DNA of 63,421 bases, counting the filler, from Globobulimina sp. (Eukaryota): NCBI GenBank assembly GCA_003354225.1. It is 42 parts of 42 records of this genome, joined end to end, with 100 filler letters (N's around TTAATTAATTAA, not from the genome) between each part and the next. Parts side by side here need not be neighbours in the genome. Positions count along the whole stretch, not along the records: positions 51,431 to 52,842 come from PIVH01017096.1; 41 more parts are not named here. The stretch is one strand, 5' to 3'. Position 1 is the stretch's first letter. Every line of letters begins with the position of its first letter. Positions 9,082 to 63,192 of this stretch are shown piece by piece. Position numbers and translations under genes: made by a program. The notes under the pieces were generated by a model that did no database searches, was not told where the DNA came from, and saw only the letters and a list, made by a program, of their open reading frames with translations.

Positions 9082-9290
9082 TTGATGATTTTGTTGGTTT
9101 GATAGAGCAAGTGTTGATTGAGTCTGTTGTCAGCTTCAGTGATGGAGATATGGGATTTGCAGCAAGTATTTTGGGTGTTAGTCAAAAAGGGTTGGAGCAA
9201 AAATTATCTAGGGATTTTGGAAGCAAGGACGTAGCAGAATTGTATGTTTTGGCTAAAAGAATGCGTAAAAACAAAGTTAAAGTTAATTAG
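9082..9290 (+). CDS. Bacterial Fis-type helix-turn-helix protein, 5' partial
   Basis: IEQVLIESVVSFSDGDMGFAASILGVSQKGLEQKL fits HTH_8; stop 8 bp before the next ATG. Confidence 0.6.
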
Positions 9291-9298
9291 GGGTAAGT

Positions 9299-10396
9299 AT
9301 GCTTAAAAATTTCACTAGAGGCGGTCAAACTTTAATGCACAAATGGCAAATGTCATTACAAGTTTTAAAAAAAATCTTTTTTGTGATGCTGCTTGGGTGG
9401 TTGATTGTTTTTTGTCTGTTTGTATTAACTCAAGTTCCTAGTAGAGCTTGGTACAATTGCTCTGCTTATGCTATAGCACACATTAAAACCCATAAATATA
9501 TAACGTCAACTCCAGAATATGTTATGCAAACCTATGATGGAATAACAAAATATTCAGATCTTATTAAAAAAGATAAGGCTATTAAAAATCAAGCAATGGC
9601 GGTTTGGCTTGTCCTGAAAAGTGCTTTTTGGTATGGGTGTCTTTTAAATTTAATATTCTTTATTTTTGTCTATATTATTTTGAATTTTCGTGGCAAGTCA
9701 CAGGGCAAAACTAAGCATGTGCGGGGAACAAAATTGGTTAAACCTAAGAGTCTTAGAAGGCGATTAATACTTACTTTCAAAGCGTCTAAGATTGAAATAT
9801 CTGGATTACCTTTAGTAAAGAATTCCGAGACTACCCATATATTAATATCTGGTGTTACTGGTGTGGGGAAGACTGCTTTGATATTGACTTTGTTAAAGTT
9901 TGTTAGGTTGTTAGGGTGGAAGGCTTTAATAGTAGATACTACTGGTTCATTTGTTGAGAAGTTTTATCGTCCGAAGTATGACAAAATATTAAATGTTTTT
10001 GATGAAAGGTGCAACTCATGGACGTTCTGGGGAGAATGCACAGAAGAGCCACACTATGAGGCTTTGATGAAATCCGCTATAAAATCTGATGGTAGCGTTG
10101 AGAATGGTGACTTTTGGGCTGGTGCTGCTCGTGTCATTGTGGCTGAATTATTGCGTGAAATGCAACGTCAAGGTAAGACTAGCAATAAAGAACTAGCTCA
10201 GCATTTGTTCTATGATAAAGTTGATGAGCTAAAAAGATTTTTAGACGAAACAACAGCAGCTAGGTTTGTTCAAGAAGAAGCTGGCAAGATGCCATATAAT
10301 ATATTGGCTCATTTGATAGCTCCGTTACAATTAATTAGATATTTGCCAGATTCAGAATGCTCTCCCACTCGTATAGCTGCTCAGGATTTTTCTTAA
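9299..10396 (+). CDS. traD: F-type type IV secretion coupling protein TraD, C-terminally truncated
   Basis: NFTRGGQ N-terminus, two TM helices, HVRGT motif, LPLVKNSETTHILISGVTGVGKT (Walker A), IVDTTGSFVEKFY, LNVFDERC..W, FW..AAR; no introns; AGGGG upstream of ATG. Confidence 0.9.
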   Translation: MLKNFTRGGQTLMHKWQMSLQVLKKIFFVMLLGWLIVFCLFVLTQVPSRAWYNCSAYAIAHIKTHKYITSTPEYVMQTYDGITKYSDLIKKDKAIKNQAMAVWLVLKSAFWYGCLLNLIFFIFVYIILNFRGKSQGKTKHVRGTKLVKPKSLRRRLILTFKASKIEISGLPLVKNSETTHILISGVTGVGKTALILTLLKFVRLLGWKALIVDTTGSFVEKFYRPKYDKILNVFDERCNSWTFWGECTEEPHYEALMKSAIKSDGSVENGDFWAGAARVIVAELLREMQRQGKTSNKELAQHLFYDKVDELKRFLDETTAARFVQEEAGKMPYNILAHLIAPLQLIRYLPDSECSPTRIAAQDFS

Positions 10397-10861
10397 AAAC
10401 TGCCGGAGAATAGTTGATTGTATTACGCACCATGAAGCCGGAAAAAATCGGGATCTTGAGCGCTTATTGCTTTATTGGGTTTATGCAGTATACGNNNNNN
10501 NNNNNNNNNNNNNNNNNNNNNNNNNNNNNNNNNNNNNNTTAATTAATTAANNNNNNNNNNNNNNNNNNNNNNNNNNNNNNNNNNNNNNNNNNNNGTCAGA
10601 GTATAGTTATAACAGTAAGTTGCAGAATGTATTGGTGAATGCAATACTGAGTGAGCTGGAGCTTAAAGATAAAGAAATATTGAGGTATATGTATATACAT
10701 TATACAGTGGTTCGTCTCTTATTGTCCGCATTCTAAATATATACACATACAAATTACAAATGTACAGTTAATAATAAACTGTAGATTTGACACAAAAAAA
10801 CATTTGTTTGTATATGATACTCATTTTTGTTGTTCCAAATTAAAGTGAAGGCATAATACGT

Positions 10862-50123: not shown

Positions 50124-51125
50124 TTAAGCGCCATATCGATGTTGAAAGTATGACAAGTTATTACCACCAATAATTTGCGAAGGTGGTCTATTTATTGGGC
50201 AAAAGAATAATTTGCAATTTTGGGTCCATGGCCTACTATTTCGCTTAGTACCTATTTGAAATCTTGCCTTATAATTTTCATTTGTGGTTTGATCGCGGCA
50301 AATTAACTTACAATGATAGCCTGTCAATGTGCTCAATGATATGCAAATAAGCAATGCATACACTCCAATACAAAATGTGTATGGTCTCACCTTTATTATA
50401 TTCCATAATTTCTTTTCATTTTCGTCATTTGCTGCATTTATTAATATAACACAACAGCAACTGGCGATGTACAATGCAAACAGTGAACAATGAAAGATGA
50501 ATAATGAGAAATATTTATAATTTCTATGTCCAATACAATTACCTATCCACGGACAGTGATGATCTGTATAGCAATTAGCAAATACTATATATATCATTAT
50601 CATACAACAATATATGTCATCTATATACATACCGAATTTACGAACGCAACATTTACAAAAGCGACAATGTTTAGCTCTGGGCGGCCTCCATATTTTGCAT
50701 GTTTCACAGAATTTGCTTCCATTTGGCTGTAATTGCTTATGTGGCAATGGGGTGCTTTCATTGCCCCGCGGCAAATAACCTGGTTCTGTGAATGCAGCCC
50801 GATACATATAATATGTTGTTATGAAAAATAAAATATATGAAAATATTATTAAAATCAGCAATGCTTTACATGAATAAAAATAGGGAGTCACTTTAATAAA
50901 ATATAATAGTGCAGGTACAAAATATAAGATATTTGTTATTATAAAATAATGAAAATCTACGCCAATCATAATGCGCCCATTACAACAAAAAAAATTTCTA
51001 CTCATTTTTTTCCATTGTTGCCATGTTACAATTCGATGTCCTGCACCATCTGCAAACATTGAATGGGACGGTGATACGTCGGTTGTATAAGTTATTGACG
51101 TGCTATTCATTTGATATGAGTCCAT
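50124..51125 (-). CDS. DHHC palmitoyltransferase (ERF2/ZDHHC9-like), intron 50564-50632
   Basis: [63 protein letters not shown]. Confidence 0.95.
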
Positions 51126-51430
51126 TCTGATTCAGTCCCTGCAGAAAGTTTTCGACTTGTTTTTATTTTCAAAACTAGCTAGATTTTTTTTTATCTCCAT
51201 TTCGCAGAGGCTGTTGCAATTGTGCTATCCAAAAACGATGAGTATTTCTGTTGTATCTCCTAGAGAACAAACTCAATTCAAATTTGACACAAATTCCTGC
51301 GCACAAGCAAGTGTAGAACAAAGCAACAACNNNNNNNNNNNNNNNNNNNNNNNNNNNNNNNNNNNNNNNNNNNNTTAATTAATTAANNNNNNNNNNNNNN
51401 NNNNNNNNNNNNNNNNNNNNNNNNNNNNNN

Positions 51431-52044
51431 GTTTTTCCAAACCAATTGCAATAAAAATACAATGCACAAATACTAAATATTGATAACATAGCAATTACAA
51501 ACATAATAAATAAATTTCTCGAAGTTTCTGGACTTAATTCGATCGTATAGTTATTGTATGCATTTTCCTTTTCTAAATCATTACCCGTTTCACCATTGGA
51601 TTGTGCTCCAAATAAATAATCGTCACCAGAGTCACTATACAAATATTGTGCACTTTCTGGCACATAGGTTTCATAGATGGCAATCACCGCATTGAGTGAG
51701 TTGACAATGTCCACTGCCTCATCAAAATTAATAGTATCACCTGCTGAGTTAAATGCTTTTTTGATAGCTCTGAGCATTTTCGATGTTTCACGGGTATTGA
51801 TATACGATTTTGCCACTGTTTTGAAATTTGTCATAAATATAGCTCGCGCGGCGGCTTCTGCAGTCACGTCACCAACACTGTGAGCAAAACCGGTTCTCGT
51901 CGCTAACATTCTTAAACTGCCGGCTACGTTGACCAGTACGGCGAGATCGCCGATTTCTTCAACCAAAGCAGTATTATCCTCATCTGATGATGCAATAATC
52001 GATAATATCATTAATACTCCAAAGAGAACTGCTATACTCTTCAT
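51431..52044 (-). CDS. Type I membrane protein with NarX/PilJ-like (P-box) ectodomain, 3' partial
   Basis: Signal peptide, LVNVAGSLRMLATR, helical bundle ending IVNSLNAVIAIYE, stalk, TM LFIMFVIAMLSIFSICALYFYC. Confidence 0.7.
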
Positions 52045-52171
52045 ATTAAAAGCTTGTTATTGATTTCGTTTGGTCGATTTAGTTTGGTTTGGATGGTGTT
52101 TGGTTTGAAAAAAAATGGAAGGATGGAAAAACAATAAAAACTTTGACCAGTAAAAAATTATTTAATATACA

Positions 52172-52809
52172 ATGGACTTAGCCAATGACACCGTCAACAC
52201 CGCTTGCAAAAAAAAAAGGAAATTATCACAACAAAATGACACTAAGAATGATGATAATGAACCACCTGCAAAGAAACAAAGATTAACAAATGTTATGCCA
52301 ACACAACCGCAACCAATGGAAAATCCAATGAAGAAAGCAAATGAAATATCACATAACAGAAAATTTCAAAAAAATATTATCAAAAATATGAAATGTTTGG
52401 ATGAGAAAAAAGTACGCAAACTCTTATTACATGTGATACAACATTGTGACGAAGCGGTTGAATTATTACAAAAGAAGTTACCATCAAAACCCACATCGGA
52501 ACCAATATTAATTCACTGTGTTGTGTGCCATTCGGATTATCAACACGAATACAATGGAGCACGAGTTTGCATTTTAGAGCCAGATTTAAATCCTGGCTAT
52601 TTTGGAAGAGGTGAGTGTGCGTGCGGTAAATAGGCGGTAATTGGGATTGTTACACTAACAAAGAATGCCCAGTTTGCTGTCAACGATTTTGTAATGGTGA
52701 TGGTGATGGCCATTGTTGTCGTGTTGGAAAACATATTTCTGATCCAAATTCAAACGAAATTAACGATTTATCTCTTCCAAGTTGTGATGAAAATTGCGAT
52801 GAAGATTGA
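52172..52809 (+). pseudogene. Nuclear Cys/His-rich hypothetical protein with 1-nt frameshift at ~52632
   Basis: KKKRK and PPAKKQR NLS-like; HCVVCH; Cys-rich frame resumes GGNWDCY..CPVCC..GKHI after the TAG. Confidence 0.55.
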
Positions 52810-53838
52810 TTATGGTTTCGCAGCAAATGATCGTGACACTGANNNNNNNNNNNNNNNNNNNNNNNNNNNNNNNNNNNNNNNNNNNNTTAATTAATTAANN
52901 NNNNNNNNNNNNNNNNNNNNNNNNNNNNNNNNNNNNNNNNNNGATGAAATCTCTAGAAATTAATATATGTAATACGATAAAATATGAATTATTGGTTGTT
53001 TTAATATGTGACAAATACCTCTCTCCATGCAATCAGTCGATCAAATATTCTTAATGTAAATGTTACGTATTAAACAACATGAATTTAAATAATATTTTGT
53101 TCCGATATTATCAAATGGATGCTATTACCATTACATATATCAATTACAACGGATTGTATTGCCTTTGCACTCGTTTAGTAAACATTATAACGAACCTTAG
53201 TCAAAAACTTTTCAATATGGTTGTTATCAATTTCATTACGCTATAATTATCAGATGCTATCCCATAAATACAATTTGGTTTCTAAATTTATAGTTTAAAT
53301 ACATGTATGGATGTATGTATTTAAAACAAGAAGGATAGTTTGATAAAGTTAATTATTTGTGAGGTGTTTGTAAGTGTTTGGTTTATTTAATTATAAACAC
53401 ACCAAATAAACTGTGACCACCGCAAATTATGGCGGACATCTTAATATAACAAGTTAATATTTAGGCGAAAATATAAGTCTATGGAAAGACATTAAGATAC
53501 TATCCATTGCTATAAACAATTACAATCCCTTATACGCACTTTATTATTCGCTTCCTTCTTTTTTTTTGTTTATTTTAACAACTAATGTATACATATGCTT
53601 GCACCCGAATAATTTAAATACTTTTTAATTCATGATCAGTATTCAGTAAAGTTCAAAAAATGCATAATAAAAAAAATAATATTCACGTGATAGTTTTGCG
53701 ATTGTAAATATGGACCATTATAAATTCATCTTACAATCCTATCTCAAATGTACCAGATCCATCAGTCATTTCTAATAAATCCATCATATAATCCATCCAT
53801 ACGCATCCATACTCATCCATACTCATCCATTGTGGTGA

Positions 53839-62010: not shown

Positions 62011-63192
62011 CGGTAGGCGGAGTTTCCTTCTTAGCTGGCCAAGCCAGCCGTTTGTTAGCCATTCACGAGTCGTTTCCCCTCTCATGCTCGTTCGTAGAGC
62101 TAAGCTAGTTCTAAATTTGTATTCTTTATTCCCGCCCACCCACCCCACGAGGGTCCGAACACAAAAATCAACTTATGCTACCACATACTTTATTGTTCTT
62201 TTTCAGATTTATTTTCTGTTGGTATTTGGGCCAATTGTCCTCCTTCCTCTGCTATCAGATTGCATGCTGATTTACAATTGACTGTGTTGCAGTCTCGTGC
62301 ACCGAGCACAGTGCACAATTATGCACTTGCCTTCAACAATTTTCTCCGTTTTTGCGATATACATAATTTCTGTCCTATACCAGCCGAACCATATCATGTG
62401 GCCTTGTTTTTACAACAACGTATGTCTTCTGCTCGAACTGCTTCGACTGTCAGTCAAGCTTTATATGGTATTAATTGGGCTCATACGTTGTGTCAGTTAC
62501 CTGGTCCTGCTAATAATATATTATGTAAACAAGTTGTTGAGGCTGCTTCTCGGCATTTTGGCACCGTTTCCAGTGCTAAAGAACCGGCCACACCCGGCTT
62601 ATTGTTAGCTCTTCATGCCGATTGTTTGGGTTCTATGTCAATTGTACCTTGGCGTACCTTTGTCTTATCGTTATTTATGTATTATGGTTTATTACGTTGG
62701 GATGAAGCATCTCACCTGACTGGTCATGACATTGAATTTTTTGATGACCATATTATTCTCCATTTGCGCCGTGCAAAAACGGATCAACATAAATTAGGCA
62801 ATCTGGTGCCTTTAGCTGCCACTGAGACCAATCTTTGTCCTTTCCGAGCTTTTAAACGATATTCTGCTCTGGCCGGCTTAAAATTGCCTTCTGCACATTT
62901 GCTTTTTCGCAACGTTTCTGGTACCAAATTAAACAAATGTCCTCTTACTTATAATAACCATTTAAAATTAGTACGTGCGGCTGTAGCACGCCATTCTAGG
63001 ATTGACCCTGTTTCTATTGGTTTGCATTCCTTCCGGTCTGGTGGTGCGTCTACATTGCTTGCTAATGGTGCTCAACCTCTTGCTATCAAGGAATTTGGAC
63101 GATGGCGTTCTGATCGCTCAATGGACAGATATTTACGACGTTCCACTCAAGCAAAATTGACCACTTCCAAACTTTTGCATCGTTCATATTAA
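62011..63192 (+). mobile_element. DIRS-order (tyrosine recombinase) retrotransposon, internal/3' part
   Basis: Upstream overlapping frame with WPSQPF (end of DIRS RT-RH-MT ORF) followed by YR ORF. Confidence 0.8.
62206..63192 (+). CDS. Tyrosine recombinase of DIRS-type element
   Basis: SRAPSTVHNY, GLLRWDE (R), AKTDQ (K), HSFRSGGAS (HxxR), GRWRS..MDRY (W, Y). Confidence 0.95.
   Translation, partial: DLFSVGIWANCPPSSAIRLHADLQLTVLQSRAPSTVHNYALAFNNFLRFCDIHNFCPIPAEPYHVALFLQQRMSSARTASTVSQALYGINWAHTLCQLPGPANNILCKQVVEAASRHFGTVSSAKEPATPGLLLALHADCLGSMSIVPWRTFVLSLFMYYGLLRWDEASHLTGHDIEFFDDHIILHLRRAKTDQHKLGNLVPLAATETNLCPFRAFKRYSALAGLKLPSAHLLFRNVSGTKLNKCPLTYNNHLKLVRAAVARHSRIDPVSIGLHSFRSGGASTLLANGAQPLAIKEFGRWRSDRSMDRYLRRSTQAKLTTSKLLHRSY

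Follow-up and report, generated by a model that had tools for sequence, protein, structure and literature searches.

The reading frame that we call ORF A, on a short contig of the foraminifer Globobulimina sp. (assembly GCA_003354225.1), encodes a membrane-anchored protein whose ectodomain is, as judged from profile comparisons and structural models, a real, diverged PilJ-type four-helix domain set in a new eukaryotic architecture. The domain keeps the Gly, Ser, Arg and Met with which bacterial nitrate sensors contact their ligand, and nitrate binding by this candidate ectodomain is plausible by analogy with those sensors; its placement at the cell surface and a function as receptor we can only infer. 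We give somewhat under an even chance to the reading that the protein is PilJ/NarX-derived, binds nitrate or nitrite as a dimer via Arg45, and does so without NarQ-like signalling. Benthic foraminifera store nitrate at high concentrations and some of them respire it, and the ORF A product is a testable candidate for nitrate perception or handling in nitrate-storing protists.

Layout of ORF A and its contig

The window, that is the whole stretch of 63,421 nucleotides that was analysed, is made up of 42 contigs, each of 1411–1414 bp, joined via N44-TTAATTAATTAA-N44 linkers. As the window consists of separate short contigs, genuine genomic context is confined to 51431..52842, the 1412-bp contig that carries ORF A (PIVH01017096.1, GC 0.356, with linkers on both sides), and ORF B is the sole true neighbour of ORF A. 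ORF A (51431..52044, minus strand) opens with an ATG at 52044 and breaks off after residue 204, where the contig stops at 51431 and truncates the 3′ part of the frame; its 204 codons are collinear with a 215-aa homologue from Bolivina argentea (P0001). An AT-rich spacer of 127 bp (52045..52171) separates it from the divergent ORF B (52172..52633, plus strand, 153 aa), a candidate gene with basic NLS-like clusters (KKKRK and PAKKQR), a Cys/His-rich stretch towards its C-terminus and no family match in Pfam and NCBIfam scans.

The ORF A product, all features of which are encoded on the minus strand, begins with a hydrophobic segment (residues 1–20, MKSIAVLFGVLMILSIIASS, 51985..52044) that may either act as a signal peptide or stay on as a membrane anchor; 12 of its 20 residues are identical in P0001, and when aligned to NF008184, the NarQ model, it falls on the TM1 region. 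The PilJ/NarX-like four-helix bundle follows (residues 25–125, 51670..51972, with helices at 25–57, 60–78, 85–100 and 107–125), including the P-box, LVNVAGSLRMLATR (residues 37–50 with Arg45, 51895..51936), and ending in VDIVNSLNAVIAIYE (residues 111–125). Next comes an acidic stalk (residues 128–172, 51529..51663) in which Asp, Glu, Ser, Gly and Asn abound; modelled with low confidence and holding one N-x-T sequon (NYT), it leads to a single C-terminal TM helix (residues 177–201, 51442..51516), in which LFIMF..LS..ICA is present in 3/3 foraminiferal sequences and 12–13 of 22 residues are identical across species pairs. The signal-like segment, the P-box with Arg45, the helical domain of ~100 residues, the stalk and the TM helix all lie where the earlier note had placed them, as does the divergent neighbour with NLS-like motifs 127 bp away.

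The same note had left the output of the protein unknown because its tail is cut off by the contig end. The homologues suggest that probably no domain is missing: full-length P0001 stops 12 residues past the TM helix, so that a cytoplasmic output domain is probably lacking, and the P0002 fragment, from Globobulimina turgida, ends ~6 residues past it. Pfam scans found no HAMP or kinase family, and the arrangement TM1-sensor-TM2-HAMP-...-HisKA-HATPase was not found, P0001 and P0002 ending soon after their single C-terminal TM helix; the view of this architecture as unlike that of bacterial sensors is borne out. NarQ-like piston signalling is unlikely, since the ~45-residue low-confidence stalk parts the bundle from the TM helix, and with the output domain absent and the stalk disordered a sensor role would have no visible transduction path.

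Conservation of the ligand-contacting positions

Nitrate in the chemoreceptor McpN is contacted by G58, A59 and M62, and by two hydrogen bonds from R61 (PMC6381276), and a conserved G-x-x-R is described as common to nitrate sensors (PMC8199190). G42, S43, R45 and M46 of the query match McpN G58, A59, R61 and M62 as well as the G-S-x-R-M of NarX and NarQ. The G-x-x-R on helix 1, the Ser after the Gly and the Met after the Arg are all kept in both the query and P0001, and a TGSQRM box occurs in 4/4 bacterial relatives. The AGSLRM of the query is identical in E. coli NarX and NarQ, and translation of E. coli NarX gives AINKAGSLRMQSYRL, with Arg54, as the earlier note had given for its P-box. In metagenomes, the longer string INVAGSLRML is found letter for letter in two bacterial proteins that are bona fide NarX-like sensors. 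No other segment is as well conserved between the query and P0001 as the P-box (11/14 identical); helices 2–4 stand at ~30% identity.

The strict N-box, [IVL]-[ND]-x-A-G-x-Q-R-M-L-[ST]-Q (PMC6381276), agrees with the query (VNVAGSLRMLAT) at 7/10 specified positions, the deviations being Q to L, S/T to A and Q to T. E. coli NarX (INKAGSLRMQSY) likewise scores 7/10, and failure on the strict N-box therefore does not exclude nitrate binding. With the NSHK P-box consensus (PMC8199190) the query agrees at 8/14 specified positions. Further along the domain, the foraminiferal sequences have Phe or Tyr in place of the conserved helix 3 Trp, and 7 residues of this region are missing from the query.

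These departures bear on an explanation that we hold to be somewhat unlikely, namely that the domain descends from PilJ and no longer senses nitrate, binding another small anion or none, and that the protein acts in structure, trafficking or adhesion within the secretory pathway, for instance as an ER or Golgi resident retrieved by a di-lysine tail. Besides the substituted Trp, the 7-residue deletion and an N-box of just 7/10, the absence of an output domain, the short basic tail and the stalk modelled as disordered would all fit such a role. The C-terminus of P0001 (...NKKHF, with Lys at −4 and −3) fits the KKXX retrieval motif, but P0002 ends in KRNT, which misfits strict KKXX. Neither would loss of nitrate sensing lead one to expect the P-box as the best-conserved segment with four of four ligand-contacting positions retained, and the PilJ LBD reported as failing to bind nitrate is, unlike the ORF A product, one without the conserved N-box (PMC6381276).

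Relationship to PilJ, NarX and NarQ

Among Pfam families, PilJ (PF13675) ranks first for the query (18.6 bits, E 0.002, residues 35–56 only) and for P0001 (20.1 bits, E 7.2e-4), and second for the bacterial relative P0005 (19.4 bits, E 1.1e-3, in its C-terminal domain, over profile positions 7–95 of 114). The expected match to this family was thus returned in first place for the query, although at a score short of the curated gathering cut-off of 26.6 bits, which none of the three sequences reaches (18.6–20.1 bits); for scale, NarX scores 41 bits and NarQ 82.6 bits. In NCBIfam the query matches NarQ and nothing else (E 0.007), and P0001 matches NarQ best; the NarQ cut-off is not attained (15 bits vs 553).

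Profile–profile alignment with hhalign gave a stronger signal. The 7-sequence family matched a PilJ set of 22 sequences (20 of the 21 PF13675 places found, plus E. coli NarQ and NarX) with 96.4% probability (E 1.4e-9) over 78 columns, which take in the aromatic position of helix 3, as against 0.8% for NIT (9 sequences), 1.6% for 4HB_MCP_1 and 0.8% for reversed PilJ. On this sequence evidence the family is tied specifically to PilJ/NarX, not to other helical sensor families; NIT (PF08376) gave no match in Pfam scans at E ≤ 10. The foraminiferal trio aligned with a bacterial family of 176–180-aa proteins at 99.3% (E 2.4e-20, 111 columns), and by itself with PilJ at 89% over a 23-column stretch of the P-box only. 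The whole-domain link to PilJ is therefore transitive via the bacterial family, the members of which align with our PilJ profile across positions 16–111.

PDB sequence and profile searches were headed by chance matches to helical proteins, cytochrome b562 fusions among them. The bacterial domain was considered as the ascending helix of an MCP hairpin, since the MCPsignal envelope covers P0005 residues 5–129; for the foraminiferal proteins this idea was dropped because they give no MCPsignal match at E ≤ 10.

Fold and dimer models

AlphaFold2 supplied with the 7-sequence alignment predicted a four-helix bundle over residues 25–125 (pLDDT 80–91), with residues 135–170 of the stalk below pLDDT 50; from the single sequence the prediction was uninformative (pLDDT 40). 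The model compares with NarX, McpN, PilJ and NarQ at VIA Z 10.9–11.2, and Foldseek places NarQ entries at ranks 1, 4, 5, 9, 12, 14 and 20 and McpN at rank 10, all with E of at least 0.074. De novo bundles, cytochrome b562, CheA-P1 and FliS score equal or higher (top Z 13.1), and since unrelated four-helix bundles score as well or better, the fold match is non-discriminating.

A homodimer was modelled with ipSAE 0.86, 0.85 and 0.86 in three runs, versus 0.00 for the best of 3 controls, values that may reflect memory of solved NarQ/McpN dimers. The ipSAE mark was passed by 21/30 proteins solved as same-chain pairs and by 0/23 solved as single chains; of eukaryotic proteins 17/29 pass, but just 1/7 of those without an older solved relative. 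The runs share at least 100% of contacts, with partner pLDDT at least 91. The predicted interface consists of helix 1 and helix 4, with residues 42, 43, 45 and 46 from both copies, positions that lie at the interface in NarQ and McpN too, and the pairs 45–42′, 45–43′ and 45–46′. Arg45 of both copies would thus lie in the modelled interface, the arrangement that the earlier note had proposed as a check, with the same possible memory of solved NarQ/McpN dimers.

It is distinctly improbable, in our judgement, that AGSLRM is a chance motif and ORF A an orphan foraminiferal helical membrane protein whose motif and sub-threshold matches reflect amphipathic-helix composition. Every direct library match does lie under its cut-off, the fold is a generic bundle, and the sequence and profile searches of PDB chains show no NarX, NarQ or McpN among the matches listed at E ≤ 10. 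Motifs of this kind are also found in unrelated proteins: 6/8 open frames from metagenomes with NVAG[ST]LRML have no score on the PilJ profile, and an SDR-type dehydrogenase matches weakly over the motif in the PDB profile search. Chance composition would, however, have to explain why three diverged sequences independently pick PilJ, why hhalign separates PilJ (96.4% over 78 columns) from three controls (0.8–1.6%), why the bacterial relatives align with the PilJ profile at positions 16–111, why the sole NCBIfam match is NarQ, and why the dimer model sets the motif at the interface. The ESM Atlas falls on both sides, its three best clusters all being PilJ, at a score of 0.86 against a lead threshold of 0.9.

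Restriction to foraminifera

An exhaustive phmmer search of the ORF A product against 1.84 billion representatives gave 5 matches at E ≤ 1e-3: two eukaryotic, one bacterial (P0005, aligned across query residues 25–133) and two repeat proteins judged spurious. The eukaryotic relatives, P0001 (E 7.9e-19, full length) and P0002 (E 7e-11), are EukProt sequences from Bolivina argentea and Globobulimina turgida, show 38–49% identity and have the same signal-domain-stalk-TM-basic-tail layout. That the only eukaryotic relatives come from these two species bears out the eukaryotic origin proposed earlier for the gene. Globobulimina turgida is described as a denitrifier (PMC6783311), and Bolivina argentea expresses NRT2, pNR, NirK and Nor (PMC8153729); nitrate amendment was among the incubation treatments of this species in that paper. 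The nearest bacterial relatives are soluble proteins of 176–180 aa, 26–29% identical to the query and without a TM helix.

Within the databases searched the protein is foraminifera-specific. No bacterial protein with the ORF A layout was found in the protein-representative, longer-protein and metagenome searches. A word-index homology search with the ORF A protein alone gave 935 candidates and none significant, and among longer proteins searched with the 7-sequence domain alignment none of the 8000 candidates scored reached E ≤ 0.001, which is weak evidence. A scan of genome contigs with the bacterial family gave one locus, matching solely its MCP-signal part. Metagenome scans for a protein pattern (591 stretches, 0 confirmed) and for the P-box DNA pattern (32 loci) yielded no additional foraminifer-type relative, and tblastn with the protein query found no ORF A paralogue on the other 41 contigs of the window.

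ORF A was recovered from further sequencing runs. Run X5, from a different study and under a different organism label, yields it in 196 pieces, of which 183 are at least 99% alike. The runs listed as carrying the sequence include none of RNA, although we guess X6 to be such a run; it yields a copy mostly 90–95% alike (4/5 pieces) with two 3-nt in-frame indels; its 26 listed single changes (17 residue-changing, 9 silent) give no clear sign of strong purifying selection, and none is listed within the P-box codons. The contigs of X5 and X6 cover ORF A and its 5′ flank only, while X1 covers both the spacer and ORF B (with 21 nt absent at 52212 and 4 nt absent at 52617 in one contig); neither an uncovered part nor contig depth is evidence on expression. 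No joints were seen, so that nothing in the covered part points to introns. A 494-nt contig of run X5 extends 432 nt past the contig end at 51431.

That the contig belongs to a bacterium, or to some other organism present in the sample, the gene being a truncated bacterial sensor, can hardly be the case: the assembly is made of 1.4-kb fragments, and a TrwB-type coupling protein (E 5.1e-49) and a phage integrase lie on other contigs of the window, but the best relatives are the two foraminiferal sequences of the same layout, the searches made found no bacterial counterpart of that layout, the nearest bacterial proteins are distant and have no TM helix, and other window contigs carry RasGEF, protein kinase and DHHC genes (the last at 50124..51125, on a different contig from ORF A).

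Proposed mechanism and significance

On our preferred reading, a nitrate- or nitrite-binding dimer without NarQ-like signalling, the ectodomain would face the outside, a vacuole or another lumen and would presumably have been acquired from bacteria as a PilJ/NarX four-helix sensor domain. The dimer would form by contacts between helices 1 and 4 of two copies, with a single nitrate (or nitrite) ion on its axis between both Arg45 side chains and Gly42, Ser43 and Met46 packing around the ion, which is the arrangement of NarX, NarQ and McpN. Output might then pass through anion-stabilised dimerisation of the conserved TM helix or through a partner in the membrane, for instance a transporter, or the protein might simply bind and retain the anion.

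We regard as unlikely the further proposal that a captured bacterial nitrate module has been rebuilt as a single-pass protein without enzymatic output, in which two ectodomains clamped together by nitrate would set off signalling or gating, either by way of the conserved TM helices or by way of an associated nitrate transporter or a partner in the vacuole. Were it true, denitrifying eukaryotes would have their first molecular nitrate receptor, and the PilJ domain a new kind of wiring.

The candidate is cheap to test, involving a 115-residue soluble ectodomain, a single arginine and a single ligand. Should nitrate be bound, the list of bacterial nitrogen-cycle parts acquired by foraminifera would lengthen, and a PilJ domain would be shown to function without a kinase, chemoreceptor or cyclase output; should it not be bound, an intact P-box would be insufficient as a predictor of nitrate binding. 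The papers searched give no account of how foraminifera perceive or manage nitrate at the molecular level: none of them joins foraminifera with NarX nitrate sensing, the sole co-mention being a histidine-kinase survey, and, as judged from titles and the starts of abstracts, none treats foraminiferal nitrate sensing. A term search of the available text of three papers on foraminiferal denitrification (PMC9231491, PMC6783311 and PMC8153729) returned no mention of a nitrate sensor.

Comparison with known systems

The periplasmic domains of E. coli NarX and NarQ (PF13675; PDB 3EZH, 5IJI) resemble the ORF A domain in forming a four-helix bundle of ~100–115 residues after a hydrophobic N-terminal segment and in their identical AGSLRM core (VIA Z 11.2, rmsd 2.4 and 100 residues aligned for NarX; Z 10.9 for NarQ). 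The query may further resemble them in its predicted symmetric dimer, modelled with Arg at the interface. They differ in what follows, since NarX and NarQ continue into TM2, HAMP and kinase, whereas the query has a disordered 45-residue stalk and one TM helix, with a basic tail of a few residues in its homologues. There is also no direct sequence similarity between the two in helices 2–4, and the host of the query is a eukaryote.

The closest relatives over the whole domain are the bacterial 176–180-aa proteins (for example WP_263049804.1 from Reichenbachiella carrageenanivorans; P0005–P0008), which have in common with the foraminiferal domain its length, a P-box (here TGSQRM) and, within helix 4, the motif IN..I..YE. 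At their N-terminus lies a piece of MCPsignal (PF00015, E 4e-11) that has no counterpart in the query, and because signal peptide and TM helix are both absent these proteins are taken to be cytoplasmic.

Among eukaryotes, histidine kinases with NarX-like sensing regions are described from Klebsormidium, Physcomitrella, Selaginella and Polysphondylium, with horizontal acquisition proposed, in a survey that reports no histidine kinase in the sole foraminiferal genome it examined, that of Reticulomyxa filosa (PMC6324907). As presented there, these proteins keep the bacterial topology and the kinase output, unlike the ORF A product, which has no kinase. The NIT-domain (PF08376) proteins of pelagophytes and placozoans (PMC9481584, PMC7400543) are likewise candidate nitrate/nitrite sensors built on a bacterial helical domain, and in pico-nano algae this domain can associate with a kinase domain (PMC9481584); with an hhalign probability of 0.8% they belong to a different family from the ORF A domain.

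The LBD of McpN (PA2788) from Pseudomonas aeruginosa (PDB 6GCV), a nitrate-specific PilJ-type chemoreceptor domain, shares the G, A/S, R and M positions and aligns with the model at VIA Z 11.1 (rmsd 2.3, 100 residues, Foldseek rank 10). The query agrees with its N-box at 7/10 positions and, unlike McpN, is without an MCP signalling domain. Dimerisation of McpN-LBD is stabilised by nitrate (PMC6381276), and by analogy a McpN-like, nitrate-stabilised dimerisation is the mechanism that we infer for the ORF A product.

Genomic context of the candidate gene

The contigs of the window are each 1411-1414 bp long (42 in all) and are separated by N44-TTAATTAATTAA-N44 (e.g. 51331-51430), where TTAATTAATTAA is a linker with stops in all frames. 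Since the window is a concatenation of separate contigs, gene neighbourhood across the linkers is meaningless, and the DHHC gene at 50124..51125 (-) lies on another contig and is no neighbour of ORF A, the candidate nitrate-sensor gene. ORF A itself runs on the minus strand from 52044 down to 51431 (204 codons, truncated by the contig end) on a contig spanning 51431..52842 with a GC content of 0.356. A divergent neighbour with NLS-like motifs, described in the earlier note, was confirmed as ORF B (52172..52633, +, 153 aa), which is separated from ORF A by a 127 bp spacer and carries KKKRK and PAKKQR clusters and a Cys/His-rich C-terminal stretch (HCVVCH...CACGK), and for which no family match was found in Pfam or NCBIfam. 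The end of this putative gene is variable: one contig of sequencing run X1 is missing 4 nt of ORF B at 52617, besides an in-frame stretch of 21 nt at 52212. No paralogue of ORF A was found on the other 41 contigs by tblastn.

Elsewhere in the window, the Pfam match of the DHHC palmitoyltransferase ORF is split in two stretches, with an odd AT-rich hydrophobic insert directly ahead of the DHHC motif; this could be a short intron that stays in frame when read through. A bacterial-type ORF with a strong TrwB/VirD4-type type IV secretion coupling-protein domain (9299-10396, +; PF10412, E 5.1e-49) lies on a contig that is AT-rich (9082-10494, GC 0.361). This ORF may come from a bacterium, endobiotic or associated, that is present in the assembly. 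The last contig, of higher GC content (0.409), carries an ORF with a phage-integrase domain (62260-63192, +; PF00589, E 8.8e-9) that may also be of bacterial or mobile-element origin.

Protein layout and relatives of ORF A

Translation bore out the arrangement that had been read from the DNA: a hydrophobic N-terminal segment (residues 1-20, 51985-52044, -), a NarX/NarQ-type P-box LVNVAGSLRMLATR including Arg45 (residues 37-50, 51895-51936, -), a helical region with VDIVNSLNAVIAIYE at residues 111-125, and an acidic stretch followed by a hydrophobic transmembrane (TM) helix (about residues 177-201, 51442-51516, -).

A word-index homology search with the ORF A protein gave no relatives; phmmer, run exhaustively over 1.84 billion representatives, yielded five matches at E <= 1e-3. 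P0001 (215 aa, E 7.9e-19, 38% identity) is collinear over residues 1-198, P0002 is a fragment of 111 aa (E 7e-11), and P0005 (176 aa, E 9.8e-4) aligns with residues 25-133; the remaining two, long repeat proteins, were judged spurious. In EukProt, P0001 belongs to Bolivina argentea and P0002 to Globobulimina turgida, both benthic foraminifera. G. turgida is a denitrifier (PMC6783311), and the genes expressed by B. argentea include NRT2, NirK, Nor and one for a putative nitrate reductase (PMC8153729). Three further bacterial proteins (P0006-P0008, 177-180 aa) came from a profile search, WP_263049804.1 from Reichenbachiella carrageenanivorans among them. The small bacterial family P0005-P0008 consists of soluble proteins in which some 60 residues from the MCP signalling domain (PF00015, E 4e-11) at the N-terminus are fused to a C-terminal PilJ-like domain bearing LIN[KL]TGSQRMLLMK; lacking a TM helix, it would represent an unusual cytoplasmic PilJ-type module. 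No further foraminifer-type members were found among longer proteins, genome contigs or two metagenome scans, and within the databases searched the ORF A family is confined to foraminifera.

The contig was also matched by other sequencing runs. X5, from another study and under another organism label, contains ORF A in 196 pieces, of which 183 are 99% alike or better, and since one 494-nt contig extends 432 nt beyond the contig end, the missing 3' end of ORF A exists in public data. The copy in X6 is mostly 90-95% alike (4/5 pieces); it carries two 3-nt in-frame indels within the ORF, and none of its listed changes falls in a P-box codon. X1 and X2, which cover both ORFs at low depth, are possibly the source sample.

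ORF A is anchored through a single C-terminal TM helix, and its homologues carry no cytoplasmic domain. The earlier note had held that a cytoplasmic tail, and the output with it, was cut off; the query is indeed cut by the contig end, but the lost part probably amounts to no more than a handful of basic residues, because P0001, with a complete C-terminus, ends (...NKKHF) 12 residues beyond its TM helix and P0002 about 6 residues past its own. Between species, the foraminiferal hydrophobic segments are unusually well kept (N-terminal 12/20, TM helix 12-13/22) in comparison with helices 2-4 (around 30%). The N-terminal segment aligns with TM1 of NarQ. It might stay in place as an anchor instead of being cleaved off as a signal, which would give a bacterial-like two-TM topology.

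Homology with the PilJ/NarX domain

The Pfam PilJ model (PF13675), proposed earlier as a check, matched the query (E 0.002, 18.6 bits), P0001 (E 7.2e-4, 20.1 bits) and P0005 (E 1.1e-3, 19.4 bits), but every score fell below the cut-off of 26.6 bits; on this scale E. coli NarX reaches 41 bits and E. coli NarQ 82.6. The match of the query is limited to the P-box (residues 35-56). Its sole NCBIfam match was NarQ (NF008184; E 0.007, 15 bits, cut-off 553; P0001, E 0.013, 14.1 bits), in which residues 3-64 align with model positions 10-69, covering TM1 and the P-box. NarX, NarQ and McpN were absent from the PDB sequence and profile search matches listed. As the library matches were all below cut-off and the PDB searches listed none of these three proteins, we built our own PilJ set from 20 of 21 PF13675 places, drawn from 81 genomes (13 with a match), together with E. 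coli NarQ and NarX.

Using hhalign, the foraminiferal trio (query, P0001 and P0002) aligned with the bacterial family at 99.3% probability (E 2.4e-20, 111 columns). All seven sequences aligned with the PilJ set at 96.4% (E 1.4e-9) over 78 columns that span helices 1 to 3, with the conserved aromatic position among them, and the bacterial four at 95.8% (E 7.2e-9, 75 columns). The trio alone matched the set over the P-box only (89%, E 2.1e-6, 23 columns), so it is through the bacterial family that the domain as a whole connects with PilJ. Controls with all seven gave 0.8% against 9 NIT domains, 1.6% against 25 4HB_MCP_1 domains and 0.8% against the reversed PilJ alignment. In an ESM Atlas feature search, a lead only, the first three clusters were all PilJ (score 0.86). 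Two metagenome loci, scoring 30.5 (L065) and 49.3 bits (L077) with our PilJ profile, encode bacterial NarX-like sensors (TM1 then PilJ domain) with an exact INVAGSLRML, also present in the B. argentea homologue. Overall, the ORF A ectodomain is very probably a diverged homologue of the PilJ/NarX-type domain.

Fold and dimer models

AlphaFold2, run on the seven-sequence alignment, predicted a four-helix bundle (helices 25-57, 60-78, 85-100 and 107-125, pLDDT 80-91), followed by a low-confidence stalk (135-170) and the TM helix. Foldseek gave no match at E <= 0.001; NarQ entries ranked 1, 4, 5, 9, 12, 14 and 20, and McpN 10. In VIA, a Foldseek-independent search of 48,161 chains, the top match was a designed protein (Z 13.1, rmsd 2.4 Å, 113 residues aligned), and NarX (3EZH; Z 11.2, 2.4 Å, 100 residues), McpN (6GCV; Z 11.1, 2.3 Å, 100 residues), PilJ (8WDF; Z 11.1, 1.9 Å, 96 residues) and NarQ (5IJI; Z 10.9, 4.0 Å, 120 residues) scored level with cytochrome b562, CheA-P1 and FliS. 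The predicted fold is thus compatible with a NarX-type domain but, as a generic bundle, non-discriminating. The NarX alignment starts with model residue 33 on chain residue 42, an offset of 9 that, known from the first and last aligned residues only, would pair Arg45 with NarX Arg54.

Homodimer models of residues 21-135 scored 0.86, 0.85 and 0.86 (best of three controls, 0.00), with contact agreement of at least 100% and partner pLDDT of at least 91. Of 30 proteins solved as one-chain pairs, 21 reach the mark for this score, and of 23 solved as single chains none does; among eukaryotic proteins 17/29 reach it, but only 1/7 of those without an older solved relative. The symmetric interface, formed by helices 1 and 4, holds G42, S43, R45 and M46 of both copies (contact pairs R45-G42', R45-S43', R45-M46' and M46-G42'). 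Because NarQ- and McpN-like dimers are already solved, the pass may reflect memory, and the predicted dimer shows likeness to McpN/NarQ, not binding.

Ligand site and proposed working

McpN holds one nitrate on the dimer axis through contacts with G58, A59 and M62 and hydrogen bonds from R61 (PMC6381276), a geometry shared by the modelled ORF A dimer, and in NarQ Arg50 of both protomers binds nitrate, stacked on Gly47 (PMC8199190). The AGSLRM core of the query is identical to that of E. coli NarX and NarQ; the query matches 8/14 specified positions of the NSHK P-box consensus (PMC8199190) and 7/10 of the McpN N-box pattern, as does E. coli NarX. Between the query and P0001 (overall identity 38-41%), the P-box is the best-conserved segment (11/14), followed by the TM helix (12/22) and N-terminal segment (12/20), with helices 2-4 at around 30%. 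In contrast to PilJ domains, the foraminiferal sequences have Phe or Tyr for the helix 3 Trp, and the query lacks seven residues around this position. Nitrate binding is not shared by every PilJ domain; the P. aeruginosa PilJ LBD is a non-binder, but one in which the N-box is not conserved.

The bundle encoded by ORF A is of PilJ type, diverged but with its P-box intact, and we consider it quite possible, if short of probable, that the ectodomain binds nitrate or nitrite. Two ectodomains would clamp a single ion between their Arg45 residues. With a flexible stalk and minimal tail, NarQ-style piston signalling seems unlikely, which would leave either plain anion binding or anion-stabilised dimerisation, the latter relayed by a membrane partner or by the conserved TM helix. 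That ORF A is a true sensor is rather doubtful.

That the domain derives from PilJ but has no ligand or serves some other purpose, perhaps as an ER or Golgi resident, is a serious if somewhat unlikely alternative; the KKHF terminus of P0001 fits the KKXX retrieval motif. A chance motif within an orphan bundle is improbable beside the alignments with the PilJ set, and a contaminant of non-foraminiferal source, beside the two foraminiferal homologues, highly so.

Comparison with known systems

A literature search found no paper that connects foraminifera to a molecular nitrate sensor or to any protein of NarX or PilJ type. NIT-domain proteins have reportedly been found in placozoans. They are known from pelagophytes (PMC9481584). 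Among eukaryotes, histidine kinases with NarX-like sensing regions have been reported from Klebsormidium, Physcomitrella, Selaginella and Polysphondylium, in a survey that found no histidine kinase in Reticulomyxa filosa (PMC6324907). The PilJ-type domain itself is already known; what is new in the ORF A family is its tail-less single-pass architecture and its foraminiferal host.
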